64,000 nt of DNA from an uncultured Actinomycetota bacterium (GTDB taxonomy: Bacteria; Actinomycetota; Actinomycetes; Mycobacteriales; SCTD01), in contig CAVXMC010000001.1 of NCBI GenBank assembly GCA_963762795.1, positions 251,148 to 315,147 of the forward strand. The letters are read 5' to 3'. Shown here one piece after another: positions 1 to 64,000 of this stretch. The notes beneath the pieces are model-generated. The model saw only the letters and a list, made by a program, of their open reading frames with translations. It was not told the DNA's origin and ran no database searches. Within the stretch, counting starts at the first letter, position 1. The number at the start of each line of letters is the position of its first letter. Both the position numbers and the translations under genes were made by a program.

Positions 1-1884
1 GGAGGCCGCCACCGGGCCGGTGGCGCAGGGCCTGACCTTCGCCATGCCGGCCCTGGACGTCCTCGCGGTGTCGGTCGCCGTCGTGGTCCTCGACCGCCTG
101 CGGAGCCGGCCCGGCCCCGCGGTCGTGCTCGCGTGCCTGGCCCTCGCCGCCACCTGCACCAGCGAGGCGGTGTACGTCGCGGCCGCGGCGGCAGGGGCGT
201 ACCAGGTGGGCGGCCTGCCCGACCTGTCCTGGTGCGCCGGCTTCGCGCTGCTCGTCGTCGCCGCCGGGGTGCCCGAGCGGGCGCCCGCCCCGGAGCCGGA
301 CGCCGTCGAGGGGCTGCGGCTGCTCCCGCTGCTGCCCGCGGTCGCGGCCACCGGCGCGCTGGCGCTGACCGGGCGGCTGTCGACCGGCCTGGACCACGTC
401 CTGACCGTCTGCCTGGTGGTGCTCGGCGCCTCGCTGGTCCTGCGGCAGTACCTGCTGCACGGCGAGAACACCGCCCTGCACCGCTCCCTCGAGGCCACCG
501 TGACGGCGCGGACCCGCCAGCTCAGCGAGGCGCACGAGCGCGAGCGCCTGCGGGCGCGCACGGACGAGCTGACCGGGCTGGCCAACCGCCCCGCGCTGCT
601 CTCGGCCATCGCCGAGGCCGTGGTCGAGGCCGGTGGTCGAGGGCGTGGCCGGGGACGACGCCTCGTACGTCGCCGTCGTCCTGCTCGACCTCGACGGCTT
701 CAAGGCCGTCAACGACGGGCTCGGCCACGCCCACGGCGACAACGTCCTGGTGGCCGTCGCCTCGCGCCTGCGAGGCGTGCTGCGGCACGGCGCGCTGGCC
801 CGGCTCGGCGGCGACGAGTTCGCCTGCGTGCTGACCGGGCTGGACGAGCCGCAGGAGGCCGTACGGGTCGCCCGGCGCCTCGTCGAGGTCCTGTGCGAGC
901 CGCTGGCCGTGGACGGCCGCGACGTCGTCCTGGGCGCGAGCGCGGGCGTGGCCGTGGCCCTGCGGAGCGCCGCGCGCACGCCGCACGACCTCCTTCGCGA
1001 GGCGGACACCGCGATGTACGCCGCCAAGCGCGCGGGCGGCCACGACGTCCGCGTCTTCGACCAGCCGATGCACGCCGCTGTGCTGTCTCGCGTCGCGGTC
1101 GAGAGCGCGCTGCACGTCGCGGTGCGCGAGGGGCAGGTCGGCCTGCACTACCAGCCGGTGCAGCAGCTGGCGACCGGGCGGATCGTCGGCGTCGAGGCGC
1201 TGGCGCGCTGGCACCAGCCCGGGTCCGGGCCGGTGCCCCCGGACGTGTTCATCCCGGCCGCCGAGCGGACCGGCCTGATCGTCCCGCTCGAGCGCCACCT
1301 GCTCGACCTGGCCTGCCGGCAGACCGCGGTGTGGCGCCGGGACAACCCCGAGCTCAAGTGCGGCGTCAACCTCTCCCCGCGGCACCTGCGCGAGCCGGAC
1401 GTGGTGGAGGCGGTGCTCGGCATCGTCGACCGCCACGGGCTCGACCGGTCGGCGATCATCGCCGAGGTGACCGAGGGCCTGTTCTTCTCCGACGAGGAGC
1501 CACGTCGCGCGCGTCCTGCAGCAGCTCGCCGACGCCGGCATCACCCTGGCGCTCGACGACTTCGGCACCGGCTGGTCGTCCCTGTCCCGGCTCACCCGTC
1601 ACCCGTTCCGGGTGCTGAAGGTCGACCGGTCGTTCCTCACCGGGCTCGTCGCCGGTGCCCTGCCGCCCGAGCTCCTCGCCGTGATGGCCGTCGGCCGGGA
1701 GCTGCAGATGGACGTCGTGGCGGAGGGGGTCGAGTCGCAGGACCAGCTCGACGTGCTCGCCGGGCTCGGCTGCCACTTCGCCCAGGGCTTCCACCTGGCC
1801 CGGCCGGGCCCCGCCGAGGCGGTCTCGGCGCAGGTGCTCAACCAGGAGCCGGTGCCCGTGCCGTCCCGCCTGCTGCCGGTCTAG
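1..1884 (+). CDS. Membrane-anchored GGDEF-EAL protein (diguanylate cyclase / c-di-GMP phosphodiesterase); N-terminus outside window; frame-disrupted
   Basis: One protein is spread over three + frames. ORF 20..1618 has hydrophobic TM segments then [18 protein letters not shown] 633..1940 has [30 protein letters not shown] and [12 protein letters not shown]. The third frame from ~1500 (listed only as ORF 1612..1884) has [23 protein letters not shown] and VVAEGVES. The frame is open back to nt 2. Breaks are at 620-645 and ~1495-1505. Confidence 0.85.
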
Positions 1885-2556
1885 CCCAGCGAGGCAGCGA
1901 TCGCCGCAGCGGCCTGCGCCGGGTCCGGTCGCGCCGGTGATGGGGCGGCCGATCACCAGCAGGTCCGCACCGTCCGCCAGCGCCTGCTGCGGGGTCGCCG
2001 TACGCGCCTGGTCGCCCGTGTCGGCCCCGGCGGGGCGTACGCCGGGCGTGATGAGGACGACCCCCGGCCCGACCTCGGCGCGGACCGCGGCGACCTCCTG
2101 CGGCGAGCACACCAGCGCCCCCGCACCGGCGCCGACGGCCAGGGCGGCGAGCCGGCGCACGGCGTCGAGCGGCGGCCCGGCGAGCCCGACGGCGTCCAGG
2201 TGCGCGGCCGTCAGGCTGGTCAGCACCGTGATCGCGGTGATCGTGACGTCGGGGGCCGCCTCGACGGCGGCCCGCACCATGTCGGCCCCGCCGGCGGCGT
2301 GCACCGTGAGGAACCGCGGTCGCAGCGGGGCGACGGCCCGGGCCGCGCCGGCGACCGTGTTGGGGATGTCGTGCAGCTTGAGGTCGAGGAAGACCTCGCG
2401 CCCGGAGCGGACCTGCTCGACGACCCCGGGCCCGGCGGCGCAGAACAGCTCGAGACCGACCTTCAGCACCTGCACGTGCGGGGCCACGGCCGCCGCCCAG
2501 CCGGCCGCGGTGGCGGCGTCCGGCGCGTCGAGCGCGACCGCGATGGGCGCCGTCAC
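1881..2556 (-). CDS. pyrF: Orotidine 5'-phosphate decarboxylase; one frame break near the 3' end
   Basis: ORF 1456..2556 starts (V)[12 protein letters not shown] and carries [11 protein letters not shown] and [10 protein letters not shown]. After ITGA the listed frame becomes nonsense. The neighbouring frame reads [14 protein letters not shown]-stop (TAG at 1881-1883), so there is an indel near 1922-1932. The GTGA start overlaps the pyrD stop. Confidence 0.85.
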
Positions 2557-3569
2557 GACGCGTCCCCGACCGGGTCAGGGCCTTCCGGCACGTACGCCTC
2601 GGGTGGCCGGTGGGCCAGCCCGACGGCGTCGGAGAAGCGGTCGAAGCCCCGGTCGGAGAGCGCCTGCGCCAGCTCGGCCAGCACGCGCACCGGGGCGGTC
2701 GGGTCGCCGAACACCGTCGTGCCGACGCTCACCGCCGACGCGCCGGCGAGCACGAACTCGAGGGCGTCCAGACCGGTGCGGATCCCGCCCATGCCGAGGA
2801 TCGGCACGTCGGGCAGCGCCTGGTGCACCTGCCAGACGCAGCGCACCGCGACCGGCCGGATGGCCGGCCCGGACAGCCCGCCGGTGACGCCGCCGAGGAC
2901 CGGGCGCATGGTGTCGGTGTCGATCGCCATGCCCAGCAGCGTGTTGATGACCGACAGCCCGTCGGCCCCGGCGTCGACGCAGGCGCGGGCGATCGCGGTG
3001 ATGTCGGTGACGTCCGGCGAGAGCTTGGCGAAGACCGGGACGTCCGACGGCGTGGCCTTGCGGACCGCGGCGACGACCTCCGACGACGCGCGCGGGTCGC
3101 AGGCGAACACCTGCCCGCGGTCCTCGACGTTGGGACAGCTGATGTTGACCTCGAGCATCGCGAGACCGGGGGCGCCGCGCAGCTTCTGCGCCAGCGTCGC
3201 GTAGTCCTCGACGCTGCCCCCGGCGATCGACACGACAGCGCGCGCGCCGCGGTCGGCGAGCCAGGCCAGGTCCTTCTCCAGGAAGGCCGCGATCCCCGGG
3301 CCCTGCAGGCCGATCGAGTTGAGCATCCCGCTCGGCGTCTCGGCCATCCGCGGCGTCGCCCGGCCCGAGCGCGGCGCCAGCATGATCGACTTGGTGACCA
3401 CGCCGCCGAGCGCGGTGACGTCGAAGAACTGGTCGAGCTCCTGGCCGGCGGCGGCGCAGCCCGACGCGGTGAAGACCGGGTTGGGGAAGGTCCTCCCGGC
3501 CAGGGTGGTGCTCAGGTCGACCCGCGGCGCGGGCGACGGCGTGTCGCGGCGCACGGTCAGCTCGGTCAT
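2553..3569 (-). CDS. pyrD: Dihydroorotate dehydrogenase, class 1B catalytic subunit
   Basis: This is the last 338 aa of ORF 2553..4175, from MTELTVRRD. Motifs: [25 protein letters not shown] overlap with the pyrK stop. Confidence 0.9.
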
Positions 3570-4419
3570 CGGTGCCCTCCGGTCGGCGCGCCCAGGGTGT
3601 CGGCGGGGACGGTGCCGACGTCGTCCCAGCGCACGCGGTCGCCGAGGAACACCGGTCCCTCGACGCAGCTGCGGACCATGCGCGTCACGTCGTCCTCGCC
3701 CCGCACCGGCAGCACGCAGGTCATGCACACCCCGATGCCGCAGGCCATCGACTCCTCGACGGCGACCTGGGCCGGGATGCCGCGCGCGGTGGCGATGTCG
3801 GTGACGGCGCGCAGCATCGCCATCGGCCCGCAGGCGTAGACGACGTCGCTGCCGGTCTTGTCCAGGACCTGCGGCAGCACGTCGCTGACGCGCCCCTTCT
3901 CCCCCGCCGAGCCGTCGTCGGTCGTCACCGCGATGACGCCGGCGATCCGCTTCGCGTCGAGCTGGCCGAACAGCTTGTCGGAGCTGCCGGCGCCGAGCAC
4001 GAAGTCGACGGTGCAGCCGCGCTCGCGCAGCGCCACCGCCAGCGGCAGCAGCGGCGCGCTGCCGTAGCCGCCGCCGACGAGCGTCGCGCGTACGGGCGTG
4101 GTGGGCAGGCGGAACGGCTTGCCGAGCGGGCCGACGACGTCGATCTTGTCCTGCGGCTTGCGCTGCGACAGCCACTCGGTGCCCTTGCCGTGCACCGAGA
4201 AGACGAACTGCACGGTCCCGCCGTAGACGCCGCGGGCCTGCACGTCGTAGATGGCGAAGGCCCGGCGCAGCAGCATGCTCGACTCGAGACCGCCGACCTG
4301 GACGGCCACGAACTGCCCGGGGCGGTAGAGCTCGGCCATCCCGGGCGCGACGACCGTGACCGCCTGGTAGGCGCCCACCCTGCGCATCGACAGGATCTCG
4401 CCGAGGACCTGCACGGGCA

Positions 4420-4420
<1 letters not shown>
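3566..4420 (-). CDS. pyrK: Dihydroorotate dehydrogenase electron-transfer subunit (FAD / 2Fe-2S)
   Basis: This is the last 284 aa of ORF 3566..5980, from VPVQVLGEILSMRRVG. It has a ferredoxin-reductase-like fold and the cluster motif CGIGVCMTC. The GTG start overlaps the carB TAG (TAGTG). Confidence 0.85.
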
Positions 4421-7703
<3,283 letters not shown>

Positions 7704-7704
<1 letters not shown>

Positions 7705-8825
7705 TAGCGCGGGCCTTCCATGAGCGAGGCGAACTGCGAGAACAGGCCGGTGGCGTCGTGTGGGCCGGGGGCGGCCTCGGGGTGGTACTGCACGGAGAAG
7801 GCCGGCACGTCGAGGCACCGCAGGCCCTCGACCACGTCGTCGTTGAGGTCGACGTGGCTGACCTCGACAGAGCCGTACGGCGTCTGCACCGGCGTCCCGT
7901 CGGTCGGCGCGTCGACCGCGAAGCCGTGGTTGTGGCTCGTGACGTGCACGCGCCCGGTCGCGCGCTCCATGACGGGCTGGTTCACGCCGCGGTGGCCGTA
8001 GCGCAGCTTGTAGGTGCCCAGGCCCAGGGCGCGGCCGAGGATCTGGTTGCCGAAGCAGATGCCGAAGACCGGCACGCGCTGCTCGAGCACGCCCTGCATC
8101 GCCGCGACCGGGCCGTCGGTGGTCGCCGGGTCGCCGGGGCCGTTGGAGAAGAAGACGCCGTCGGGCTCGAGCGCGAGCAGCTCGTCGGCCGTCGTCGTGG
8201 CCGGCAGCACGTGCACCTCGCAGCCGTGCTGCGCCATGTAGCGCGGGGTGGCCCGCTTGATGCCGAGGTCGACCGCCGCGACGCGGAACCGCCTCTCGCC
8301 GACGGCCGACACGACGTACGCCTCGGGGGTGGTGACCTCGTGCGCGAGGTCGGCGCCCTCCATCGGCGGGGACGCCAGCACGCGCTGGGTGAGGGCGTCG
8401 GTGTCGGCGAGGGCGTCACCGGAGAAGACGCCGGCGCGCATCGCGCCGCGCTCGCGCAGGTGACGGGTCAGGGCGCGGGTGTCGACACCGCTGATGCCGA
8501 CGACGCCCTGCGCGGCCAGCTCGTCGTCGAGGCTGCGGCTGCTCCGCCAGCTGCTCGCCATGCGGGCCGGGTCGCGGACGACGAAGCCGCTGACCCAGAT
8601 GCGGACCGACTCCATGTCCTCGTCGTTGGCACCGGTGTTGCCGATGTGCGGGGCCGTCATGGCGACGACCTGGCGGTGGTAGCTCGGGTCGGTCAGCGTC
8701 TCCTGGTAGCCGGTCATGCCGGTGTTGAAGACGGCCTCGCCGAAGGTCTCGCCGACGGCGCCGTAGGCCTCGCCGCGGAACGTGCGGCCGTCCTCGAGGA
8801 CGAGCACAGCGGGGGTGCGCGTCAT
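7704..8825 (-). CDS. carA: Carbamoyl-phosphate synthase small (glutaminase) subunit
   Basis: This is the last 373 aa of ORF 7704..10217, from [16 protein letters not shown]. Motifs: [26 protein letters not shown]. Confidence 0.95.
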
Positions 8826-9346
8826 GCGCTCTCCTCCTGGGTGGGGCTCTGGGTGGGCAGGTGGGCGTGCACCGCGTCGGCGAGCCGGCGGTGGGCGGCG
8901 TGGTCGTCGGCCCGGAAGCCGGACTGCACGGTGCGGCCGCCGAGGCGCCAGGTCACGACGAGCATCCCGTCGCGGCCGACGACCTTGCCGGCGAGCGCCT
9001 CGCCCGGCTCGGCGGCGTCGACGAGGTCGTAGGGCAGGTAGACGTCGTCGCCGCCCTCGCGCTCGACCAGCAGCCCGTCGGTGCGGACCGTGAGCCAGCC
9101 GGACGACCGGTCGGACAGGCCGTGCACGGCGACGCGGTCGAGCCAGTCGCCCTCGAACACCGTGCCGATGAACAGCCCCGGCGTCGCCCCGACGACGACC
9201 AGACCCGGCTCCTCGGGCGGCTGCGGCGGTGGCGGGAGGTCGCCCTGCCGGCGCTGGCGGCCCCGCCAGCCCTTGAGCATGAGCAGGTAGACCAGCACGA
9301 CGAACGCGAGGACCGCGGCGGTCGCGAGGACCCGGTCGGAGCTCAT
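8822..9346 (-). CDS. Small membrane protein conserved inside actinobacterial pyr operons (one N-terminal TM helix)
   Basis: ORF 8822..9346 has the TM segment [20 protein letters not shown] followed by a soluble domain. It sits between pyrC and carA, the position of the membrane-protein gene in the mycobacterial pyr operon (from memory). ATGA overlap with the carA start. Confidence 0.6.
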
Positions 9347-9385
9347 GCCGGCGTCCCGTGGCGGTCTTGGGGACGCGGTCCTGGC

Positions 9386-10672
9386 TCACGCAGGCTTCCC
9401 GTCGAGCACGGTCGGCGTCCCGCGCAGGAAGGTCGCGCGGACGCGTACCGGCAGTGACCGCCCGGCGAACGGCGTGTTGCGGCTGCGGGTGGCCATCGCG
9501 GCCGCGTCGACCGTCCAGGGCGCAGCCTCGTCGACCAGGCAGAGGTTGGCCGGCGCGCCGACCTCGAGCGGGCGGCCGTGGCCCTCGAGCCGGCCGATCC
9601 GCGCCGGGGTGCTGGACAGCCGCTCGGCCACCTGCCGCCAGGTCAGCCGGCCGGGCAGGACCATCGTCTCGGCGACGATGCCGAGCGCGGTCTCCAGGCC
9701 GGTCATGCCGGGCAGGGCGGCGCCCCACTCGGCCTCCTTGTCCTCGAGAGCGTGCGGAGCGTGGTCGGTCGCGACGCAGTCGATGGTCCCGTCGGCGAGG
9801 CCGGCCCGCAGGGCCTCGACGTCCTCGGCGGTGCGCAGCGGCGGGTTGACCTTGAAGACCGGGTCGTAGGACGCGGCGAGGTCGTCGGTCAGCACCAGGT
9901 GGTGGGGCGTGACCTCGGCCGTGACGTCCCAGCCCTTGCTCTTCGCCCAGCGGATGAGCTCGACGCTGCCGGCGGTGCTGACGTGGCAGACGTGCAGGCG
10001 GCTGCCGACGTGGGCGGCGAGCAGGCAGTCGCGGGCGATGACCGCCTCCTCCGCGACGGCCGGCCAGCCGGTCAGGCCGAGGCGGCTGGAGACGACGCCC
10101 TCGTTCATCTGCGCGCCGACCGTCAGCCGCGGCTCCTGCGCGTGCTGGGCGATGACGCCGTCGAAGGCCTTGACGTACTCGAGGGCCCGGCGCATCAGGC
10201 TGGCGTCGCTGACGCACTTGCCGTCGTCGCTGAACACCCGCACGCGGGCGGCGCTGTCGGCCATGGTCCCGAGCTCGGCCATCTGCTCGCCGCCGAGGCC
10301 GACGGTCACCGCGCCGACCGGCGCGACGTCGCAGTGGCCGGCCTCCTGGCCGAGCCGCCAGACCTGCTCGACGACACCCGCGGTGTCGGCGACCGGGTCG
10401 GTGTTGGCCATCGCGTGCACGGCGGTGAAGCCGCCGAGGGCAGCAGCGAGGGTGCCCGTCTCGACCGTCTCGGCGTCCTCGCGTCCGGGCTCGCGCAGGT
10501 GCGTGTGCAGGTCGACCAGGCCCGGCAGCAGGACCGCTCCCCCGCCGTCGTACGCCCGGCTGCCGCCCTCGGACAGGCCGGTGCCGATCTCGGCGATGAC
10601 GCCGTCCACGAGGCGGACGTCGACGGGCGCGCCCTCGCCGTACAGGCGGACGTCGCGGACCAGGGCGCTCAC
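9386..10672 (-). CDS. pyrC: Dihydroorotase
   Basis: This is the last 428 aa of ORF 9386..11713, from [14 protein letters not shown]. Motifs: [28 protein letters not shown] overlap with the pyrB stop. Confidence 0.92.
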
Positions 10673-12176: not shown

Positions 12177-12189
12177 CGGCAGGAGCCTC

Positions 12190-14190: not shown

Positions 14191-14192
14191 CG

Positions 14193-52176: not shown

Positions 52177-52344
52177 GGCTCCTCCGTCTCCTGTGCGCGC
52201 GCATGGTCCCGCCCCGGCAGGCGTCCCGTCGGCGGCGGGGCCGCGGTCAGGACGTCGCGCGAGGAACGGGACGGACCGGGCGAGTGTACGGCGCAGCTGC
52301 GCTGGGCAGAGGCGACGGCGCGCGCGGGAGACCGCCCGGGGATC

Positions 52345-53397
52345 TCAGTCGGGCAGGTCCAGCGGCAGCGGCTCGACCGCTCCGGGGCGGGGCGGCTGCA
52401 GCCCGAGGTGCCGCCAGGCGGCCGGCGTGGCGACCCGCCCGCGGGGGGTGCGGGCCACCAGGCCGGTGCGGACGAGGAAGGGCTCGGCCACCTCCTCCAC
52501 CGTGGTCGGCTCCTCCCCCACGGCCACGGCGAGCGTCGACAGCCCGACCGGGCCGCCGCCGAAGCGGCGGACCAGCGCCTCGAGCACCGCGCGGTCGAGC
52601 CGGTCGAGCCCCAGCTCGTCGACGTCGTAGACGGCCAGCGCCTCCTGCGCGACCGGCAGGCTGACGACGCCGCCGGCCCGGACCTCGGCGAAGTCGCGCA
52701 CCCGGCGCAGCAGCCGGTTGGCGACCCGGGGCGTGCCGCGCGACCGGCCGGCGATCTCGTCGGCCGCGTCGCCCTGCAGGCGCACGCCGAGCAGGCCGGC
52801 GCTGCGGACCAGGACCTGCTTGAGCTCGGCCGGCGAGTAGGGCTCCATGTGGGCGGTGAAGCCGAAGCGGTCGCGCAGCGGGCCGGTCAGCAGGCCGGAG
52901 CGGGTCGTGGCGCCGACCAGCGTGAAGGGCGGGACGTCGAGCGGGATCGCCGTCGAGCCCGGGCCCTTGCCGACGACGATGTCGACGCGGAAGTCCTCCA
53001 TCGCCATGTAGAGGAGCTCCTCGGCCGGGCGGGCGATGCGGTGCACCTCGTCGATGAACAGCACCTCCCCCTCGGTCAGGCTGGTGACGAGGGTGACCAG
53101 GTCGCCGGCCCGCTCCATGGCGGGGCCGCTGGTGATGCGGACCGGCGCACCGAGCTCGCTGGCGATGATCATGGCCAGCGAGGTCTTGCCGAGGCCGGGC
53201 GCGCCGGACAGCAGCACGTGGTCCGGGGGCCGGCCGCGCAGCTTGGCGCTCTCCAGCACGACGGACAGCTGCTCGCGCACCCGCTCCTGGCCGACGAAGT
53301 CGGCGAGCGTGCGCGGGCGCAGGGCGGCGTCGACGGTCTGGTCGTCGGGCGCGGCCTCCGGGCGGACCAGCCCGTCGTCCTCGGGCACGGCGGTCAC
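52345..53397 (-). CDS. ruvB: Holliday junction DNA helicase RuvB
   Basis: ORF 52345..53397, 350 aa, uninterrupted: [51 protein letters not shown]. Confidence 0.95.
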
Positions 53398-53996
53398 CGG
53401 CCCCGGCCCAGCAGGGCGAGCGCCTCGCGCAGCAGGACCGGCACGTCGGCGTCGGTCGCGTCGGGGTGCTTGTCAGCGACCTTGCCGACGACGTCCTCGG
53501 CCTGCGGGGCGGTCCACCCGAGGCCGACGAGCGCGGCGCCGACCGTGTCGCGCCAGCCGGGCAGCCCGGTGGCCACCGCCGGGGCGGGGCCGGGCGCGGC
53601 GCCGACCTTGTCCTTGAGCTCCAGCACCATCCGCTGCGCGCCCTTGCGGCCGATGCCGGGCACCAGGCAGAGCGCCGCGAGGTCCTCGGTCACCAGGGCC
53701 CGGCGGACGGTGTCGGGCGTGTGCACGGTCAGCACCGCCTGGGCCAGACGGGGGCCGACCCCGGAGGAGGTCTGCAGCAGCTCGAACAGCACGCGCTCGT
53801 CGTCGTCGGCGAACCCGTACAGCGTCAGGCTGTCCTCCCGGACGACCAGGCTGGTGGCCAGCTCGGCGTCGTCACCGACCCGCAGCCGGGCGCGGGTGCC
53901 CGGCGTGACCTGGACCGCGAGCCCCACGCCGCCCACCCGGACGACGACGCCGTCGGGCAGCAGGCCGGTGACGGTGCCGGCGACGCTGGCGATCAC
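53394..53996 (-). CDS. ruvA: Holliday junction DNA helicase RuvA
   Basis: This is the last 200 aa of ORF 53394..54476, from [28 protein letters not shown]...[27 protein letters not shown]...[12 protein letters not shown]. Confidence 0.9.
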
Positions 53997-54511
53997 CGGG
54001 CGGCCAGGGCGGCAGCGGCCGCGGCGAGCCGGGCCTGCGCAGGAGCCCGCCAGAGGTGGCAGATCGCGAGCGCGAGGGCGTCGGCCGCGTCGGCCGGGCG
54101 CGGCGGGCCGTCGAGCCGGAGCAGGCGGGCCACCATGGTGCCGACCTGCGCCTTGTCGGCGCGGCCGGAGCCGGTCACGGCCGCCTTCACCTCCGACGGC
54201 GTGTGCAGGGCGACCGGGAGCCCGCGGCGGGCCGCGCACAGCACGGCCACCGCCCCGGCCTGCGCGGTGCCCATCACCGTGCGGACGTTGGCCTGGCTGA
54301 ACACCCGCTCCACCGCGACCGCGTCGGGGCGGTGGTCGTCGAGCCAGCGCTCCAGCTCGACCTCGAGGGCGGCCAGCCGGGGCCCGAGGTCGAGGTCGGG
54401 CGAGGTGCGGGCGACGCCGACGGCGACCAGCACGGGCGGGCGGCCGGGGGCGCCGTCGACCACGCCCAGACCGCACCGGGTCAGCCCGGGGTCGACGCCC
54501 AGCACGCGCAC
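53993..54511 (-). CDS. ruvC: Crossover junction endodeoxyribonuclease RuvC
   Basis: ORF 53993..54511, 172 aa: [18 protein letters not shown]...AVERVF...[13 protein letters not shown]. Confidence 0.92.
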
Positions 54512-54596
54512 GCCCTCGCCTCTCGTCAGGGGAACACCTGTTCGAGCGGGGAGCGTACGGCGACCGTCGGCCGGCAGCGGGCGCGACGCGCCGGGC

Positions 54597-56447
54597 TCAG
54601 GCCGGGCGCTCCTCCAGCAGGACCATCGCCCCGGTCACGCCGCCGGTGCCGTCCTGCAGCCGGCTGCAGGTGACCACGCACACGACCTCGCGACCGAACC
54701 GGTTGCGTGCCGGCACCTCGGTCTCGAAGCGGGGCTCCCCGCCGTGCAGCACGCCGAGCAGGCCCTCGCGCAGCGCGTCGACCGGCAGCCCGATGTCGAG
54801 GGAGAGGAAGGCGCGGCCCTGGGCCTCGTACGCCCGCAGGCCCCACATCTGCTCGGCCCGCTCGTTCCAGACCCGGATGACCAGGCCGGGGTCGACGACG
54901 ACGACCGCGGCGTGCAGGCCGAGCAGGATGCTCTCCAGGAAGGCGTTGACGCGGTGCACCTCGGAGGTGCGCTCGCGCAGCTCGTCGTTGACCGACTGGA
55001 GCTCCTCGTTGGTGCTCTGGAGCTCCTCGTTCATCGTCTCGAGCTCCTCGTTGGTGCTCTGGAGCTCCTCGTTGGTGGTCTCGAGCTCCTCGATCGCGCT
55101 CTGGAGCTCCTCGTTGGTGGTCTCGAGCTCCTCGTTGGAGCTCTGCAGCTCCTCGTAGGCCGTCTCGAGGGCGCGGTTGGCGGCGTCGAGGTCCTCGGCG
55201 AGGTGCCGGTAGCGGGTGACGTCGACGAAGGTGATCTGCACGCCGAGGTCGGTCGCCGCGTCGCGCAGGGGGGCGACCTGCACGTCGTACCAGGCCTGGT
55301 CGGTCCCCCGGCCCCAGGTGACGTCGCGCAGCTCGACCGGGGTGCCGTCGGCCTGCGCGGTGGCCACGGGGCGGCGCAGCTCGACCGGCGCCCAGGACAG
55401 CGGCAGCTCGAAGAAGGGCCGCCCGACGTCGGCGCGGGAGACGCCGAGCCGGCGCACCGCGCTCTCGTTGACGAGGGTCAGCAGGCCGTCGGCGTCGAGG
55501 ACCACCTGCGGGTCGGGTGCGCCGGCGAACGCCGCCTCGACGACGCGCGAGCTGCCCGCCTCGCCGTGCCGGCCCCGCGGCGTGAAGGGCGGCCGCGGGG
55601 GCTCGCGGTGGCCGGTCTTGACGAACATCCGGTGCTTGAGGTCGACCGGGGCGAAGAGGTCGCCGTGCGTCAGGAGCATCTCGGCCTTGCCGAGCAGCAG
55701 CAGCCCGCCGTCGCTGAGGGAGAAGCTGAAGCGCTCGAGCACCCGGGCCTGGGTCTCGTGGTTGAAGTACATGAGGACGTTGCGGCAGGTCAGCAGGCTG
55801 ACCCGGCCGATCGGGGCGTCCTGGATGAGGTCGTGCCGGCCGAAGATCACGGCGTTGCGCAGCTCGGAGCGGATCGTGAGCACGTCCTCGTCGCCCTCGA
55901 ACCAGCGCTCCACCAGCTCCGGGTCCAGGGCCTCGAGCGCGGACCGCTTGTAGCGGCCGGCCCGCGCCACGGCCAGCGCCGACTCGTCGACGTCGGTGGC
56001 GTAGACCTTGACCCGCTCGGCGAACTGCTCCGGACCCAGCACCTCGGCCAGCACGATGGCCAGGGTGTAGGCCTCCTCGCCGGTCGCGCAGGCGGCGCTC
56101 CAGACCCGGATCGGGCTGTTCGGGGGCAGCGACAGCAGCAGCTCGGGCAGCGCCCGCTCGCGCAGGACGGCCCAGCTCTCGGGGTCGCGGAAGAACGCCG
56201 TGACGTTGATGAGCAGCATGTCGAACAGCTGGCGGAACTCGCCCGGGTCGACCTCGAGGTGGTCCTGGTACTCCCGGACCGTCGCGTGACCGGTCGTCTG
56301 CATGCGCCGGGCCACCAGCCGCATGAGGCTGGACCGCTTGTAGCCGGTGAAGTCGGCCCCGCGGTGGACGCGCAGGTGCTCCAGCAGCGCCTCGAAGTCC
56401 GGGTCCGGCTCGGGCTGCGAGCGGGAGCCCCGGGCGGAGGCGGTCAC
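54597..56447 (-). CDS. CheR-type protein-glutamate O-methyltransferase fused to PAS - heptad coiled coil - PAS (no kinase output domain)
   Basis: ORF 54597..56447, 616 aa, uninterrupted. The CheR SAM-MTase core has [41 protein letters not shown] and [11 protein letters not shown]-like segments flank [59 protein letters not shown]. Confidence 0.85.
54996..55163. repeat. Eight in-frame 21-nt repeat units inside the CheR-PAS gene (heptad NEELxxx coiled coil)
   Basis: Units of the form ct(g/c)(g/c)agctcctcg(t/a)t... run at exact 21-nt spacing from 54996 to 55163. Several units are identical (ctggagctcctcgttggtggt occurs twice). Confidence 0.9.
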
Positions 56448-57580
56448 TGCCCGACGGCCGTGTCGCCGCGGTCGGTCTCGGCCTGGAGCTCGTCGCTGAG
56501 CACCGGCAGGTCACGCGGCGGCGGCATCGGGCTCGAGGCCTCCTGGATGAGGAGCCGGCGCAGCACGGCGGCGTTGCTCTCGGCCTCCGCCGCCCGCTCG
56601 CGGAAGTGCCGGCCGGACCAGGTGCGGCCGGCCGCCTCGGCCGCCTCGGCGACGCGCACCGCGATGGCGTGCCGCTCCTCGAGCGCGCGCAGGGCCATCC
56701 ACAGGGCGGTCTCGACGCCCCGGTCCTGGCGCTCGGCCAGGCTCTCCAGGGACCAGGCGTGCCCGGTGCGGCAGCGGAAGCGCAGCAGCGGCCCGTCCTG
56801 GATCTCCCACAGCACGCCGCTGCAGTCGGGGCAGGACCAGGCCGACGGCACGCCGGGGTGGTCGCCCGTGTAGGGCCCGACCGAGTGCCCGAGGCTCATC
56901 GCGACCTCGGCCCGGTCGGCCCTCTCCACCGCCGGGGGGAGCTGCACCGGCTCGGGCGCGGCCGCGTGGACGAGCTCCTCGACGACCGCGGCGAGGTCGG
57001 CCAGGGAGACGGTCTGGGCGGTCGGCACTGCGGCCAGGGCGTTGCGGGGCATGCCGGGGAACAGCGCGGTGTCGGGGTCCTGGACGACGGCCGAGCCGCC
57101 GTGGCGGTCGACGGCCAGCAGGCCGGCGCTGCCGTCGTCGAGGTTGCCGGTCAGGACGACGCCCACGACCCGGCCGCCGGCCGCGTGGGCGGCGGAGCGG
57201 AAGAGCACGTCGACCGCCGGCCGGAAGCCGTTCTCGTCCGGCCCGGACGTCAGCTCGACGTGGTCGCCCTGGACGACGAGGTGGCGACCGGGAGGGGCGA
57301 CGAGGACCGTGCCCGGCACCAGCGGGTCGCCGTCGGCGGCGGCGCGCACCGGCAGGGCGCTGACCCGGCGCAGGATCTCGGGCAGCACGCTGGTCGCGCC
57401 GCTGCGCGGCAGGTGCAGCACGACGAGGACGCAGGCGGGCAGGTCGGCCGGCAGCGCCGCGACCAGGGTCCGCAGCGCCTCCACCCCGCCGGCCGAGCCG
57501 CCGATGACGACGACGTCGTGGCCGCCGCCCCCGGCCGCGGGGGGCGGCGCGCTGACGACCTCGTCGTGCGCTGTGGACAT
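56444..57580 (-). CDS. CheB-type protein-glutamate methylesterase domain protein without receiver domain, with Cys-rich/helical C-terminal extension
   Basis: ORF 56444..57580, 378 aa, uninterrupted. The ATG follows AGGAGG. Motifs: VVVIGGSAGGVEAL, VVLHLP, VVLTGNLDDGSAG. The C-terminal part is WSCPDCSGVLWEI...FRCRTGHAW plus a helical tail. 4-nt overlap with the CheR-PAS start. Confidence 0.8.
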   Translation of the reverse strand: MSTAHDEVVSAPPPAAGGGGHDVVVIGGSAGGVEALRTLVAALPADLPACVLVVLHLPRSGATSVLPEILRRVSALPVRAAADGDPLVPGTVLVAPPGRHLVVQGDHVELTSGPDENGFRPAVDVLFRSAAHAAGGRVVGVVLTGNLDDGSAGLLAVDRHGGSAVVQDPDTALFPGMPRNALAAVPTAQTVSLADLAAVVEELVHAAAPEPVQLPPAVERADRAEVAMSLGHSVGPYTGDHPGVPSAWSCPDCSGVLWEIQDGPLLRFRCRTGHAWSLESLAERQDRGVETALWMALRALEERHAIAVRVAEAAEAAGRTWSGRHFRERAAEAESNAAVLRRLLIQEASSPMPPPRDLPVLSDELQAETDRGDTAVGQ

Positions 57581-57652
57581 CTCGGGATCCTCCTGGCGTC
57601 GCGGTCTGGTGAGGGCTACCCGCTGACGCGCCGCTCCCCCGTGGAGGCGGGC

Positions 57653-58408
<756 letters not shown>

Positions 58409-58441
58409 GGTGCTCCTCCTCGATCGGTCCGGCCCGCGAGT

Positions 58442-59027
58442 CTAGTGGAGCCCCTCGACGAACAGGGCGTGCACGCGCGCGTCCCCGGTCAGCTCCGGGT
58501 GGAAGGACGTGGCCAGCAGCGCGCCCTGGCGGACGGCGACGGGGTGGCCGCCTGGCTCGCGGGCCAGCACCTCGACGCCGTCGCCGACCCGCTCCACCCA
58601 GGGCGCCCGGATGAAGACGGCGTGGACCGGCTCGGCCAGCCCCTCGAGCGGCAGCTCGGCCTCGAAGCGAGTCGACCTGCCGGCCGAAGGCGTTGCGCCG
58701 CACGCTGACGTCCAGGCCGCCGAGCGTCGGCTGCCCGGGCTTGCCGTCGAGCACCTCGTCGGCCAGCAGGATCATGCCGGCGCAGGAGCCGTACGCCGGG
58801 AGGCCGCCGCGAAGGGCCTCGCGCAGCGGCTCCAGCAGGCCGAAGACGGTGAGCAGGCGGCCGATGGTCGTCGACTCCCCACCGGGCACGACGATGCCGT
58901 CGAGCCCGGCCAGGTCCTCGGGCCGGCGCACCGGTACGGGGGCGGCGCCCGCGCTCACCAGGGCAGCGCTGTGCTCGCGGACGTCCCCCTGCAGCGCCAG
59001 CACCCCGACCCGGGGTGCTGCCGTCAC
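58442..59027 (-). CDS. pdxT: Pyridoxal 5'-phosphate synthase glutaminase subunit PdxT; one frame break
   Basis: ORF 58284..59027 reads [14 protein letters not shown]...PGGESTT...[10 protein letters not shown]...[10 protein letters not shown]. The continuation [10 protein letters not shown]...[22 protein letters not shown]-stop (TAG 58442-58444) is in the adjacent frame. There is an apparent single-c insertion at ~58672. Confidence 0.88.
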
Positions 59028-59932
59028 CAGCCGCGGGTGGCGAGCAGGTCGCCGGCGCCCAGCTCGTCGGCGGCGATGCCGACCATGGCCTCGCCGAGGC
59101 CGCGGCTGACCTTGGCGATGCGCTCGGCGTCCTCGAAGGAGGCGGTCGCCTCGACGCAGGCGCGGGCGCGCTGGGCCGGGTCGCCGCTCTTGAAGATGCC
59201 GGAGCCGATGAAGACGCCGTCGGCGCCGAGCTGCATCATCATCGCCGCGTCGGCCGGGGTGGCCACGCCGCCGGCGGTGAACAGCACGACGGGCAGGCGC
59301 CCGAGCTCGGCCGTCTCGCGGACCAGGTCGATCGGCGCGCTCATGAGCTTGGCGGCCTCGTACAGCTCGGTCTCGTCCATGACCGTGAGCCGCTTGATCT
59401 CGCCGAGGATGGTGCGGATGTGCGTGGTGGCCTGGCTGACGTCGCCCGTGCCGGCCTCGCCCTTGGAGCGGATCATGGCCGCACCCTCGGAGATGCGGCG
59501 CAGCGCCTCGCCGAGGTTGGTGGCGCCGCAGACGAAGGGCACGGTGAAGCGGCGCTTGTCGATGTGGTGGGCGTAGTCGGCCGGGGTGAGGACCTCGGAC
59601 TCGTCGACGTAGTCGACGCCGATCGCCTGCAGGACCTGCGCCTCGACGAAGTGGCCGATGCGTGCCTTCGCCATGACCGGGATGGAGACCTCGGCCTGGA
59701 TGCCGTCGATCATGTCGGGGTCGCTCATGCGGGCGACCCCGCCGTCGCGGCGGATGTCGGCCGGGACGCGCTCGAGCGCCATGACCGCGACCGCGCCGGC
59801 GTCCTCGGCGATGCGCGCCTGCTCGGGCGTGACGACGTCCATGATGACGCCGCCCTTGAGCATCTCGGCCATGCCGCGCTTGACGCGGTCGGTGCCCTGG
59901 GCGGTGGTGGCGGCGGCGCTGTCGGCGGGCAC
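59024..59932 (-). CDS. pdxS: Pyridoxal 5'-phosphate synthase lyase subunit PdxS
   Basis: ORF 59024..59932, 302 aa, uninterrupted: [14 protein letters not shown]...[13 protein letters not shown]... Confidence 0.95.
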
Positions 59933-59969
59933 GGAGGTTCCTCGCAGTCGGGGGTCGAGACCGCCGAGT

Positions 59970-60644
59970 CTACGGCCCGCGGGGCGGTCCGGCCTGGCTG
60001 CGCTCGGTGACGTAGGCGTCGTCGATGTCGAAGTGCAGGGGCATCACGCGGTGCCCGGCCAGGTGCAGCGCGCGCACCAGCCGGCGGGTGCGCACGACCC
60101 TGGTGTCGGTCACCGCGGCGTTGTGGAACGAGCGGGCCAGCCCGACCCGGGTGGCCGCGGTCGTCAGCTCGTCGACGAGCGCCGGGGCGGTGTCGGCCGG
60201 CACGAGCGGGGCCGCCGCGCGCAGCGCCCGGGACAGGTCGTTCTCCAGCGCCTCGCGGTCGACCGGGCCCGCGGTGAGGGCGGCCTGCGCGGCGCCGACG
60301 AGCCGTCCTGCCTCCGGCCCCGGCGGCAGGGTGGCCGCGACGGCCCGGGCCGCGGCGGCCCGCCGGACCAGCTGGGCGTCGAGGGCGGCCCAGGCGGCGT
60401 CCACCCGGGCGTGCAGGCGGTCCAGCCGACCGGCGGTCCAGGTGACGTAGACGGCGAGCAGCACGACGACCGCGACGGTGAGGACGACGGTCGTCACGGC
60501 GCGACCCGCTCCCGTCACCACCGCGAGCCAGCGGCGCAGGGTCCCCGACAGCCGCCCCGGGTCGTCGTCGCCGAGCCGGTCGAGCTCGTCCTCGACGTCG
60601 GGCAGCGCGTCCTCGTCGAGCAGCGCCGCCTCGTCCAGCCACAC
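59970..60644 (-). CDS. Membrane protein with LemA-like helical domain; start uncertain (same frame as the pimA 3' part, no intervening stop)
   Basis: This is the C-terminal ~225 aa of ORF 59970..60914. Candidate GTG at 60644 ([20 protein letters not shown]...). TM segment [19 protein letters not shown], then [29 protein letters not shown]...[17 protein letters not shown]. Confidence 0.45.
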
Positions 60645-61749
60645 CGGCGTGCTGACGGCGACCGTCTCGTAGACCTCGACGACGGCGCGGGTCACTGTCG
60701 ACCAGTCGTACGCCCGCACCGCCCGACGGCCCTCCGCGGCCAGGCGCTCGCGCCGCGGCGCGTCGGCGAGCAGGCCGGCCAGCGCGGTCGCCAGCGCTGC
60801 GCCGTCGCCGACCGGGAACAGCACCCCGGCGGCGCCGTCCTCGAGCACCCGGCGGAACGCCTCCAGGTCGCTCGCGACGACCGGCGTGCCGGTGGCCATC
60901 GCCTCGATGAGCACGATGCCGAAGCTCTCGCCGTGGGTGTTGGGCGCGCAGTAGACGGTGGCGGTGGCGTAGAGCGCGCGGCTTGTCCTGCTCGCTGATG
61001 CGGCCGAGCAGCTCGACCGCGTGCTCGGTGCCGGGTGGCGGCGCGACCTCGCGCGGGTCGCCCGGGCCGGCCACCAGCACGCGGACGTCCGGCACCTGCG
61101 CGACGAGCGCGGGCAGCGCGTCGAGCAGGACGGCGAGCCCCTTGCGCGACTCGTCGACCCGGCCGAGGAAGACGACGGTCGGCCGGTCCGGCTGGTCGGG
61201 CAGCGGCTGCGCGCCGTCGTAGCGGTCGACGAAGACGCCGTTCGGGATGAGCACCGCGTCGCCGCCGAGGTGCTCGACCACCACGCGGCGGGCCGCCGGC
61301 GACACGGCGATGCGCCCGGTGATCTTCTCCAGACCGGGCTGCAGGACGGTGCCGAAGACCTGGAGCATGCGGCTGCGCGCGGTCGCCGTGTGGAAGGTCG
61401 CCACCATGGGACCGGCGGCGGCGAAGCAGGCCAGCATGGACAGCGACGGCACCGTCGGCTCGTGCAGGTGCAGCACGTCGAACCGGCCGTGGCGCAGCCA
61501 CCGCCGGGTCCGCGCCAGCGACAGCGGGCCGAAGCAGAGCCGCGCGACGCTGCCGTTGTAGGGCACCGGCACCGTGCGCCCGGCCGGCACGACGTAGGCC
61601 GGCAGGTCGGCGTCGTCGGGGTCGTCGACCGGGGTCAGCACGCTGACCTCGTGGCCGAGCTCGAGCAGGCTGTCGGCGAGGTCGCGGACGTGCGCCTGCA
61701 CGCCGCCGGGCACGTCCCAGGAGTACGGGCAGACGATGCCGACCTTCAC
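60645..61749 (-). CDS. pimA: GT4 glycosyltransferase, phosphatidylinositol mannosyltransferase PimA-like; one frame break, 3' end uncertain
   Basis: The GTG at 61749 (GTGA overlap with the acyltransferase stop) gives VKVGIVCPYSWDVPGGVQAHVRDLA...HLHEP...VFLGRVDESRKG..., in the frame of ORF 59725..62253. After DK(P)RA it continues LYATATVYCAPNTHGESFGIVLIEAMATGTPVVASD... in ORF 59970..60914. The break is at ~60975. Synteny with pgsA and the acyltransferase supports the PimA call. Confidence 0.8.
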
Positions 61750-62642
61750 GCCTGCGCGGCCCGTCGGGGGTCGTCGGCGGCCAGGTCGTCCAGCCACAGC
61801 CGCTGCAGCATGTGCCAGTCGGCCGGGTGGGCGGCGATGCCGGCGGCGAAGGCGTCGGCCAGCGCCTGCGTCATGGTCGCGACGTCGGTGTGGGCGACCT
61901 CCTCGTGCCAGGTGCAGAGCCAACCGTCGTCGGTGAAGGCCAGCGTCACCGGCAGCAGCACCGCACCGGTGCGCAGGGCGAGCGACGCGGGGCCGGCCGG
62001 CATCCGCGCGGTCGCCCCGAAGAAGGTCACGTCGACGCCGCGCGCGGACAGGTCGCGGTCGGCGAGCAGGCAGAGGGTCCCGCCGGCCTCGAGCCGCTCG
62101 ACCAGCACGTCGTACGGCGGGCGGGCGCCCCCCGTCAGCGGCAGCACCTCCATGCCGAGCGACTCGCGGAAGGCGACGAAGCGGTCGAACAGCCCCTCGG
62201 GCTCCAGCCGCTCCGCGACCGTCGTGAAGGGCGCGCCGGTCAGGCCGCACCACGCGCCGGCGTGGTCCCAGTTGCCGCTGTGCGGCAGCGCGAGGATCAC
62301 GCCCCTGCCGCTCGCCAGCCCGGCCCGGAACCGCTCCTCGCCGACGACCTGCATGCCGCCGACGATGCGCTCCGGCGGGGTCACCGGCAGGCGGAAGACC
62401 TCGCGCCAGTAGCGGGCGTACGAGCGCAGCGCCGCCTGCGTCAGGTCCTGCCCCGGGGCGACCCGGGCCAGGTTCGCGCGCAGCCGGTCGACCCCCTTGC
62501 CGCCGCGCCGGGCGGCCAGGTCGGCCCCGGCGTCGAACAGCCGCACCGCGACCGGCTCGGGCAGGGCCCGCACGAACGCCCAGCCCCCGGCGTACGCCCC
62601 GAGCGTGAGCAGGTCGGCCACCCGCTGGAGCGGCGGCCTCAC
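61746..62642 (-). CDS. Lauroyl/myristoyl-type (LpxL/HtrB family) acyltransferase, PIM acyltransferase-like
   Basis: This is the last 298 aa of ORF 61746..63671, from VRPPLQRVADLLTLGAYAGGW...ILALPHSGNWDHAG...LLADRDL...FFGATARMPAGPA. It lies between pgsA and pimA, as in the mycobacterial PIM locus (from memory). Confidence 0.8.
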   Translation of the reverse strand: MRPPLQRVADLLTLGAYAGGWAFVRALPEPVAVRLFDAGADLAARRGGKGVDRLRANLARVAPGQDLTQAALRSYARYWREVFRLPVTPPERIVGGMQVVGEERFRAGLASGRGVILALPHSGNWDHAGAWCGLTGAPFTTVAERLEPEGLFDRFVAFRESLGMEVLPLTGGARPPYDVLVERLEAGGTLCLLADRDLSARGVDVTFFGATARMPAGPASLALRTGAVLLPVTLAFTDDGWLCTWHEEVAHTDVATMTQALADAFAAGIAAHPADWHMLQRLWLDDLAADDPRRAAQA

Positions 62643-63253
62643 GACTGCGCGAGCGCTGCCTGCTTGCGCACCTCGACGAGGCGCTGCACGACCGTGACCG
62701 CGGTGACCGCCGCGAGGACCCACAGCAGCACGGCGAGCACCCAGTGCGGGGCGCCCAGGCCGACCAGCAGGGTGCCGAGCAGGACGAGGATCAGCCGCTC
62801 GGCCCGCTCCGCGATGCCGACGTTCGCCGACAGCCCGAGCCCCTCGGCGCGCGCCTTCTCGTACGACACGACCTGGCCGGAGGCGAGGCAGAACAGCGCC
62901 ACGGCCAGCAGGGTCGTGTCGTCGCCGTCGCCGGCGTACCAGAGGACGAGGCCGCCGAAGATGGCGGAGTCGGCGACCCGGTCGCAGGTGGAGTCGAGCC
63001 ACGCGCCGAAGCGGCTCGTCGTGCCGCGCTGGCGGGCCATCGCGCCGTCGAAGAGGTCGGTGATGACCCCGAGGAAGACGATCGCGGTGCCCGTGAAGAA
63101 CATGCCCCGCGGGAAGAACACCAGCGCGCCGACCACCGCCCCGAGGGTGCCGAGCGAGGTCAGGACGTCGGGCGTCACGCCTGCGCGCAGCAGTCCCGCG
63201 GCGACCGGGTCGACCACCTTGGCCAGCGCGGGGCGTACGTGCAGGTTGAGCAT
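62639..63253 (-). CDS. pgsA: CDP-alcohol phosphatidyltransferase (phosphatidylinositol phosphate synthase-like)
   Basis: ORF 62639..63253, 204 aa: DLFDGAMARQRGTTSRFGAWLDSTCDRVAD, i.e. the motif D-x2-DG-x2-AR...G-x3-D-x3-D. It has multiple TM helices. Confidence 0.85.
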   Translation of the reverse strand: MLNLHVRPALAKVVDPVAAGLLRAGVTPDVLTSLGTLGAVVGALVFFPRGMFFTGTAIVFLGVITDLFDGAMARQRGTTSRFGAWLDSTCDRVADSAIFGGLVLWYAGDGDDTTLLAVALFCLASGQVVSYEKARAEGLGLSANVGIAERAERLILVLLGTLLVGLGAPHWVLAVLLWVLAAVTAVTVVQRLVEVRKQAALAQS

Positions 63254-63399
63254 CGGGGTCCGTCCGGTCGGGAGTGGCAGCCAGAGGGTAGCGAGGGCGG
63301 ACCCGCGCGACCGGCAGCGCCGCGGACCCCGGTGGTCGTACCTTCCTCGTGTCCGCGGGAGGGTGTGCGCGGGCCGGCACGGCCCAGGGAGGTCGGCGG

Positions 63400-64000
63400 A
63401 TGAGCAAGAGCACAGCAGCAGGGACGGCGCCCGCGCCGAGGGACGCCGGGCAGGTGCGCAACGTCGCCCTCGTCGGGCACGCGGGCGCGGGCAAGACGAC
63501 GCTCCTGGAGGCGCTGCTCGCGCGGGCCGGGGCGGTCCCCCGGGCCGGCCGGGTCGAGGACGGGACGACGGTCAGCGACACCGAGCCGTACGAGGTGCGC
63601 AGCCAGCACTCCGTCGCGCTCGCGTGCGCGGCGCTGGAGCACCGCGACGTCAAGGTGAACCTGCTGGACACGCCCGGCTCCCCCGACTTCGTCGGCGAGC
63701 TGCGGGCCGGCCTGCGCGCCGTCCGACGCCGCGCTGTTCGTCGTGTCGCCGGTGCAGGGCGTCGACGCCGTGACCGTGCAGCTGTGGGAGGAGTGCGCCG
63801 CCGTCGGCACCCCGCGCGCGGTCGTCGTGACGCAGCTGGACAAGCCGCGGGCCGACTTCGACGAGGCCGTCGCGGTCTGCCAGCGGGTGCTCGGCGAGGG
63901 CGTCCACCCGCTGCACCTGCCGATGCTCGCCGACGACGAGTCGGTCGCCGGCCTGATCGGGCTGCTGGACCAGAAGGTGCAGGACTACAGCAGCGGGACC
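63400..64000 (+). CDS. EF-G-like translational GTPase (second EF-G paralogue type), 3' end outside window; one frame break
   Basis: The ATG at 63400 gives [40 protein letters not shown]...[22 protein letters not shown]. After ~63722 the conserved sequence [45 protein letters not shown] continues in the adjacent frame. The ORF is not in the supplied track because it has no stop in the window. Confidence 0.8.

Follow-up and report, generated by a model that had tools for sequence, protein, structure and literature searches.

The window, that is, the whole 64,000-nt stretch of actinobacterial DNA that was analyzed, carries a GGDEF-EAL gene, a pyrD-nusB block, a type IV pilus locus and a long series of housekeeping genes, many of which are interrupted by frame breaks (Table 1). 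Sites were placed by codon-usage Viterbi segmentation combined with frameshift-aware protein-to-DNA alignment against coding segments from 120 related loci. The alignment references were trimmed to Viterbi coding segments; stop-to-stop ORFs gave false shifts at gene boundaries. The resulting list, kept conservative, comprises 73 frame-shifting indels (plausible range, ~68-85) spread over about 27 genes. At 53 of the sites, the shift was found with at least two references and a majority of the covering references, and the further sites were supported by 1-2 references or by Pfam. The breaks are confirmed as a real feature of the deposited sequence. An initial annotation of this DNA had estimated roughly 60-70 breaks, very unevenly spread, and our mapping bears this out, with at least 73 breaks and a dispersion beyond chance; all of the genes that it named as broken proved to be broken according to Viterbi segmentation, references or stitched Pfam matches.

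Table 1. Genes and blocks of the window with the frame breaks mapped in them.
Feature	Position	Strand	Observation
GGDEF-EAL gene	1..1884	+	Three frames (Viterbi +1/+2/+0), breaks near 632 and 1500
pyrF	1882..2559	-	One +1 insertion near 1940, ~15 codons ahead of the stop; read from three frames
Break-free block pyrD-nusB	2553..14603	-	One frame per gene, own stop each
bldD, within the first break-free block	12460-12984	+	
aroB	15216..16321	-	Breaks ~15687 and ~16235; 45-46 of 46 references agree
Dense patch of pilus assembly genes: pilP-like gene, pilO, pilN, pilM, prepilin peptidase pilD	18044..22313	-	~28-37 events
Large pilus-associated and minor-pilin-like genes	22313..26091	-	Sparse breaks ~23297, ~23773, ~25518; 1-2 references, 33-39% identity
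pilC	27312..28540	-	11-13 frameshift events, net +12 nt vs 406-residue relatives
pilT and pilB	28553..31643	-	pilT +1 at 29285, possibly more ~29895-29930; pilB +1 ~30890
aroE, mltG, ruvX	31697..34028	-	aroE ~32207; mltG ~32607 and ~33424; ruvX ~33692; 35-59 references per site, nearly all covering
alaS	34025..36693	-	Four insertions (2+1+1+1 nt), 35255-35411
Caspase-like (Peptidase_C14) gene	38777..39572	-	Frame change near 39143 (Viterbi); break count uncertain, lacking a close reference
aspS and hisS	40531..43560	-	aspS three +1 at 41134-41185; hisS +1 at 42534
MBL-fold gene and PPIase	43564..45261	- (MBL), + (PPIase)	MBL +1 ~43960 (47/47 references); PPIase +1 ~44532 (33/37 references)
relA	45636..47942	-	Two +1 insertions near 46270-46291, one ~47579; DNA alignment to L004
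secD	50016..51765	-	+1 ~51192 in Pro/Ala/Ser-rich linker; may have another near the 3' end ~50054; alignment to L083 SecD
Second break-free block: yajC, ruvB, ruvA, ruvC, cheR-PAS, cheB, yebC	~51200..58600	-	Single-frame matches to L082, L083, L084
pdxT and pimA	58442..61752	-	pdxT +1 ~58667; pimA +1 ~60979
EF-G-like GTPase	63442..64000	+	Break ~63724; GTP_EFTU profile 2-150 continuous through the joint

After frame correction, every gene was full length, and the corrected genes contained no in-frame stop. Codon usage was coding-like in all fragments, and GC3 was intact according to the Viterbi analysis. Stitching and correction thus confirmed the earlier observation that the pieces on either side of the breaks read as conserved protein without stops. 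The stitched products of GGDEF-EAL (two joints), pyrF, pdxT, pimA and the EF-G-like gene each gave one continuous Pfam domain match over the joint, the GGDEF (profile 2-159) and EAL (3-236) domains running through both joints of the first and the pyrF protein matching OMPdecase 3-221 of 221. In the caspase-like gene, the Peptidase_C14 match lay in the N-terminal piece only and ended exactly at the joint.

Genes were hit regardless of essentiality: alaS, hisS, secD, relA, aroB, aroE and pyrF are all broken, and the statement that essential genes are affected stands for the first four. The insertions in alaS, seen in a DNA alignment to a 90% identical relative (L001) and agreed on by 63-66 of 66 references, throw the C-terminal ~410 codons out of frame. 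In aspS, the three insertions lie within ~50 nt and sum to +3, which restores the frame; aspS and hisS are read jointly as one chimeric 1009-residue ORF, and intact 421-residue HisS relatives align over residues 0-421 with one +1 event. The extra C placed in pdxT at ~58672 by the initial annotation was recovered as the +1 listed in Table 1. For pimA, it had proposed a lost nucleotide at ~60975; an extra nucleotide fits better, the length difference being +1 in both references, and a probable additional +1 near 60500 removes the stop of this gene.

The pilus genes carry ~45 of the ~73 events, about 60%. Corrected PilD and PilM are 77% and 72% identical, respectively, to their counterparts in one relative (L089), and stitched PilM aligned without interruption to 36 metagenome loci. 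The best homologues of PilC are full length in 120 of 120 cases (403-415 residues), and the corrected PilC is stop-free and 83% identical to its homologue P0144. All covering references agreed on the breaks in pilT (8/8) and pilB (5/5), and the latter was resolved as a one-base insertion in a DNA alignment to L009. The genes between 22313 and 26091 are read in long single-frame Viterbi segments. The major pilin gene itself is unbroken and is preceded by a conserved c-di-GMP-I riboswitch.

The distribution of the breaks is significantly patchy (P<1e-5). The index of dispersion per kb was 3.45, a value that none of 5000 simulations reached (highest, 1.92), and the largest break-free gap, 13.7 kb, was reached in 0 of 100,000 simulations. 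The pattern is two-state: patches hold 7-22 events per kb, and stretches of 13.7 kb and 7.5 kb hold none. The densest patches are the 18.0-22.3 kb region (~7 per kb), pilC (~10 per kb) and alaS (4 events in 160 nt). Both of the break-free blocks initially described, pyrD-nusB and ruvB-yebC, were confirmed by single-frame matches to NCBIfam and to three relatives (L082, L083 and L084): PyrD, PyrK, CarB, CarA, PyrC, PyrB, PyrR and BldD gave essentially end-to-end, single-stretch NCBIfam matches, and RuvB from the second block is 100% identical to a catalogued protein (P0002). Regional GC was considered as a cause of the patchiness and rejected, as it bore no relation to break density (0.766 and 0.678 in dirty patches vs 0.739 and 0.758 in clean blocks). 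Conservation was likewise rejected, with a weak trend only. The mean conservation percentile of the break sites was 0.37 compared with an expected 0.5, some breaks lie in highly conserved stretches (e.g., hisS 42534), and the alaS patch does not coincide with the most divergent part of alaS. The initial annotation's caveat that random error would not predict the clustering was fair, and the clustering is real; the supposed enrichment in variable linkers was weak.

The indel spectrum is strongly one-directional and context-independent, as expected of a technical process. All 11 events resolved at the DNA level were insertions, and the overall insertion:deletion ratio was ~10:1 or more; the length difference was usually +1, and -1 was seen at just ~4 sites, such as aroB ~15687, where window nucleotides minus three times the reference residues gave -1. 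The mixture of insertions and deletions described initially is thus replaced by a marked excess of insertions. Its companion claim, that the breaks are not confined to homopolymers, was upheld: no homopolymer or repeat enrichment was detected at the break sites, where run lengths of 1, 2 and 3 occurred 15, 6 and 3 times against background frequencies of 58%, 31% and 8%. C and G predominated among the inserted bases, as the base composition would predict. The codon phase of the inserted base was considered as a way to recognize doubled wobble SNPs and set aside as non-discriminating, since insertion at two of the three places in a codon leaves the same ambiguity. No substitution excess was found at near-invariant columns, of which 2 of 205 were altered in corrected PilC and 3 of 226 in unbroken RuvB.

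The initial annotation had proposed aligning the broken genes to orthologues to see whether the same indels recur. In this comparison, no relative carried the same breaks: none was shared by L001, which at ~90% identity was the closest DNA relative available, by three HisS proteins that are 91-93% identical, by the 120 PilC homologues or by the 36 PilM loci. A secD break common to the relative L084 was considered and rejected, as the 1.09-Mb L084 contig has its own secD frameshift at a different site and the two breaks lie 36 residues apart. The name 'contig_9985' and the size of L084 suggest a long-read assembly. The top-scoring RuvB match (L081), a 560-residue product with a duplicated domain from a short contig, yielded no DNA alignment to the window that could be used. 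The divergence of the pilus genes from their relatives, divided by the divergence among those relatives, gave ratios of 0.90-1.06; these ratios are limited to the pilus genes and efp, which have one common reference set, the housekeeping sets being confounded and dominated by Streptomyces.

Overall, we infer that the frame breaks are very probably errors of the deposited consensus rather than mutations of the organism. This artefact reading is preferred to decay because essential genes are broken, the corrected genes are stop-free, the breaks are unshared, and the damage is insertion-biased without repeat context. The initial annotation had leaned the same way, and the breaks in essential genes, the full-length corrected products and the unshared +1 indels support it. 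Stray single bases very probably stayed in the consensus at some assembly stage; in some patches they account for ~1-2.5% of positions, and other stretches have none. As for the patchiness, uneven building or polishing of the consensus is the probable origin. It could stem from long-read depth fluctuating on the kilobase scale in a low-abundance genome, short-read coverage gaps closed with unpolished long-read consensus, or reads of diverged co-occurring strains piled up by a caller that kept bases over gaps. Gene callers would then split or fuse the affected genes, as in the HisS-AspS chimera. Long-read and hybrid metagenome assemblies that are low in coverage or heterogeneous are known to vary in consensus quality from place to place (10.1101/2021.08.23.457338).

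Several observations sit uneasily with an artefact. About 60% of the events are concentrated in the type IV pilus genes, a single non-essential locus, a picture that real decay would give as well. The most strain-variable genes, the pilins at 22.3-27.3 kb, are the cleanest in the locus, so that a simple equation of variable with unpolishable fits poorly. Moreover, the insertion:deletion ratio of at least 10:1 exceeds that given in the literature for raw PacBio reads (~8% insertions vs 3% deletions) and is unlike that of Nanopore, whose errors are typically homopolymer indels (PMC9262707).

Within the consensus-error reading, a collapsed strain mixture is a possible, though rather doubtful, sub-cause. 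Reads or contigs of co-occurring strains of intermediate divergence would have been merged, and misaligned stretches would have kept the bases of both, leaving insertion-only errors where the strains differ. The almost insertion-only damage without a substitution excess is consistent with such a merger, as are the weak lean of the sites towards less conserved columns and the concentration of breaks around the pilin island; pilin islands are a locus type that often differs between strains. However, mosaic substitutions would be expected as well and none is evident at invariant columns, the pilin and minor-pilin core has comparatively few breaks, and both the position of the patch within alaS relative to L001 and the hisS break in a highly conserved stretch run against it. 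According to the literature, local population heterogeneity can make regions unpolishable (10.1101/2021.08.23.457338). If the breaks belonged to the organism, relaxed selection could be letting inactivating frameshifts build up, in the type IV pilus locus if not throughout the genome. The concentration of events in the pilus genes would suit such decay, as would the presence of indels in all fragments with no large rearrangements. We consider it very unlikely nonetheless: essential alaS, hisS, secD and relA are also broken, nonsense codons are absent, GC3 and codon usage are intact, the divergence ratios are ~1, no break is common to the closest lineages, and insertions alone without repeat context are unlike spontaneous indels. 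The lack of excess change at near-invariant residues strongly disfavours decay. It is extremely improbable that the organism really underwent a very recent burst of untemplated +1 insertions, such as a defective replicative or repair polymerase might cause, and was sampled before selection or new substitutions took effect; the patchiness would then reflect local exposure, e.g., in transcription-coupled or break-repair tracts. Programmed recoding or phase variation would let ribosomal frameshifting or transcriptional slippage bypass the breaks, or would make them reversible simple-sequence-repeat switches. Its sole support is that the sequence before and after each break still encodes good protein. 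Programmed frameshift sites are conserved, and here the breaks are absent from all relatives, which read a single frame; with up to 13 shifts in one gene and break sites outside homopolymers, this explanation has a negligible chance and is already refuted in practice.

Besides frameshifts, true pseudogenes formed by reductive evolution, as in Mycobacterium leprae, contain stops and deletions and have more substitutions at conserved sites; such decay spares essential genes, and its lesions recur in sister strains. The window resembles M. leprae in its many frameshifted genes, actinobacterial background and conserved gene order, but none of these pseudogene traits holds in it. Phase-variable pilus and contingency loci are driven by simple-sequence repeats. 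They likewise concentrate frameshifts in genes for surface structures such as pili; in contrast, the sites in the window lack repeat tracts, a single gene can carry many shifts, and the damage extends to housekeeping genes. A further likeness is found in the residual indels of long-read or hybrid genome and metagenome assemblies, as addressed by proovframe and IDEEL-type checks, in which frameshifts and locally unpolishable regions are documented (10.1101/2021.08.23.457338; PMC9262707; PMC7423617). These indels are also frameshift-only, blind to essentiality and restored via related proteins. The errors in the window differ in that they are almost all insertions, independent of homopolymers and unusually sharply divided between patches and clean stretches.

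The breaks themselves are without biological novelty and very probably no feature of the organism; the contig serves as a data-quality warning. Split and fused gene calls of this kind raise the apparent number of pseudogenes and skew pangenomes and protein clusters, and they could be mistaken for a lost type IV pilus. The insertion-only, context-free, sharply patchy and substitution-neutral signature provides a fingerprint for the same pipeline fault elsewhere. The window belongs to a 331,590-bp contig from an uncultured, high-GC actinobacterium closely related to Frankiales MAGs; in the public record (NCBI/ENA), RuvB, NusB, YebC and the HisS-AspS chimera all derive from a single contig of that length. 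The exact 1009-residue chimera is present in a public protein collection as P0121 (NCBI and ENA), where it is clustered at 90% with three authentic HisS proteins of 421 residues.

On the evidence of the sequence, the reading-frame breaks in the window are not biological. They were mapped by three independent approaches: a codon-usage Viterbi model, frameshift-aware alignment and a Pfam scan of stitched pieces. The Viterbi model, for which the clean genes of the window served as training set, divided the window into coding-frame segments and placed dozens of frame changes away from stop codons. Our own frameshift-aware protein-to-DNA aligner drew its references, 1,493 coding segments in all, from 120 related loci; these loci came from a genome-collection scan centred on alaS, a metagenome scan centred on the stitched PilM and contigs carrying RuvB homologues. 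It returned 53 break sites for which the supporting references numbered two or more and formed the majority of those covering the site, and additional sites resting on one or two references. For genes with no available relative, the pieces were stitched and scanned against Pfam; a single continuous match spanned the joint in the GGDEF-EAL protein (two joints), PyrF, PdxT, PimA and the EF-G-like GTPase, and the caspase-like gene gave a match in its first piece only. The conservative list comprises 73 events in about 27 genes, and the initial annotation's count of 60-70 breaks in about 30 genes was accurate. Beyond this list, a further probable +1 in pimA abolishes the stop.

The initial annotation had favoured an artefact over long-term gene decay, and the affected genes and their relatives support that reading. 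Essential genes are broken: alaS is left without its C-terminal half, hisS lacks the final 80 residues, and breaks also fall in secD and relA. Three intact HisS proteins of 421 residues, 91-93% identical, match over their whole length (0 to 421), and the single +1 in hisS falls within a highly conserved stretch. PilC homologues were full length in all 120 of the 120 best matches. Real decay of pilC, a long-inactive gene carrying a dozen indels, would be expected to bring loss of invariant residues and stop codons, neither of which was found in PilC. Across about 120 homologues, the columns with a conservation of 95% or more were compared: frame-corrected PilC differed in 2 of 205, both conservative changes, and the unbroken RuvB in 3 of 226; as a sequence-based test, we consider this comparison decisive against real decay. 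Moreover, the divergence of the pilus genes from their relatives, set against that among the relatives, gave ratios of 0.90-1.06 with no excess, and codon bias was preserved in every fragment. In practice, these findings rule out real decay, phase variation and programmed frameshifting.

The mixture of insertions and deletions initially described proved to be far from balanced. Where the DNA could be aligned to a sufficiently close relative, all events were insertions on the side of the window: alaS has four (2+1+1+1 nt) inside 160 nt, relA two, pilB one and aspS three, the last together restoring the frame. One insertion in pyrF was found by direct reading. We also subtracted three times the number of reference residues from the window length between flanking anchors; most sites gave +1, patches with several events gave +2, +3 or +4, and only about four sites gave -1. 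In pilC, the 11-13 events add a net 12 nt compared with relatives of 406 residues. Taken together, the DNA-resolved events, the length differences and the net gain in pilC give an insertion:deletion ratio of 10:1 or more. The run holding the best-fitting inserted base had a length of 1 in 15 cases, 2 in 6 and 3 in 3, which matches the background (58%, 31% and 8%); homopolymers and simple repeats therefore play no part.

The breaks are spread unevenly, far beyond chance. Their index of dispersion per kb was 3.45 compared with a simulated maximum of 1.92, an empty gap of 13.7 kb was reached in 0 of 100,000 simulations, and 44% of spacings were 150 nt or less compared with an expected 16%. Both blocks initially described as free of breaks proved to be so: eight proteins of the pyrD-nusB block match NCBIfam models essentially end to end, each in one stretch, and the genes from ruvB to yebC each align in one frame to three relatives. 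Regional GC did not explain the patchiness. Conservation among relatives explains little (mean percentile 0.37); another part of alaS is more divergent than its patch, and within the pilus locus the breaks are fewest in the hypervariable pilin genes. Uneven consensus building would fit a pattern with two sharply separated states and almost no substitution errors. Candidate causes would be long-read depth fluctuating at the kilobase scale, unpolished long-read consensus filling short-read gaps, or diverged strains collapsed locally by a caller favouring bases over gaps. Residual frameshifts and locally unpolishable regions are known from long-read metagenome assemblies, and errors are insertion-rich in PacBio continuous reads and homopolymer indels in Nanopore reads (10.1101/2021.08.23.457338; PMC9262707; PMC7423617).

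Features and break densities of the window
Feature	Position	Strand	Remark
GGDEF-EAL protein	1-1884	+	stitched Pfam match
CTAG shared by pyrF and GGDEF-EAL	1881-1884		palindromic
pyrD-nusB block	2553-14603		break-free
BldD regulator	12460-12984	+	NF050110, full-length match
Dense section	18.0-22.3 kb		about 6.5 events per kb
pilC patch			about 9.5 events per kb
Type IV pilus locus	18044-31643	-	complete
Type IV major pilin gene	26258-26683	-	
c-di-GMP-I riboswitch aptamer	26719-26800	-	RF01051, 46 bits, model 1-87 of 87 (full length)
Alignment with closest relative	34201-38427		90% DNA identity
alaS, 180-nt window			about 22 events per kb
HisS-AspS fusion ORF	40531-43560	-	1009 residues
hisS break	42534		single +1
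CheR-PAS methyltransferase and CheB methylesterase	54597-57568	-	between ruvC and yebC
pimA break	near 60500		further probable +1
13.7-kb and 7.5-kb blocks			0 events per kb

NusB, YebC and the fusion ORF of the window are present in a public protein catalogue, listed under an NCBI/ENA contig with the length given for that of P0002, the RuvB match (331,590 bp); the window therefore belongs to a public record. The fusion (P0121) is an artefact caused by the hisS error, and at 90% identity it clusters with HisS proteins that are genuine and 421 residues long (P0121-P0124 together), which shows a route by which such errors enter databases. A related contig, L084 (ENA ERZ25039498 contig_9985, 1.09 Mb), which looks from its name and length like a long-read assembly, carries a +1 frameshift of its own in secD (11100-13400) at a site different from that in the window. 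Another, L081, has a RuvB of 560 residues whose domains are duplicated (2322-4004), probably a misassembly.

The window has a G+C content of 74% and no tRNA genes. Almost every gene is on the minus strand, and the order is the one conserved in actinobacteria: pyrF, pyrD, pyrK, carB, carA, pyrC, pyrB, pyrR, bldD (plus strand), nusB and efp; aroB, aroK and aroC; the pilus locus; aroE, mltG, ruvX and alaS; aspS, hisS, relA, apt, secF, secD and yajC; ruvB, ruvA, ruvC, cheR, cheB and yebC; and pdxT, pdxS and pimA. Among public sequences, the window is closest to MAGs of uncultured Frankiales and Mycobacteriales, with L001 (isolate RYN_170) nearest of all, and the window RuvB is 100% identical to the catalogued protein P0002. 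The cheR-cheB placement, unusual within such a housekeeping cluster, is common to three related loci (L082, L083 and L084). The minus-strand pyrF and the GGDEF-EAL gene converge so that both TAG stops share the same four bases.

The one item with biological content is the c-di-GMP-I riboswitch, which precedes the major pilin gene by about 36 nt. Riboswitches belonging to its clan occur in the pilus locus of five of the seven related loci scanned: about 80-90 nt upstream of a pilin-homologous segment in L086, L089, L090 and L097, and as a GGC variant in L104. The pilus locus itself (pilB, pilT, pilC, the major pilin, several large minor-pilin-like proteins, pilD, pilM, pilN, pilO and a pilP-like gene) sits between aroC and aroE, with the rest of the aro-alaS order conserved; Streptomyces loci lack it in the stretch leading from the aroB-aroC region to that of alaS. 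Three c-di-GMP-related elements lie within 64 kb: the BldD regulator, the GGDEF-EAL protein and the pilin riboswitch.
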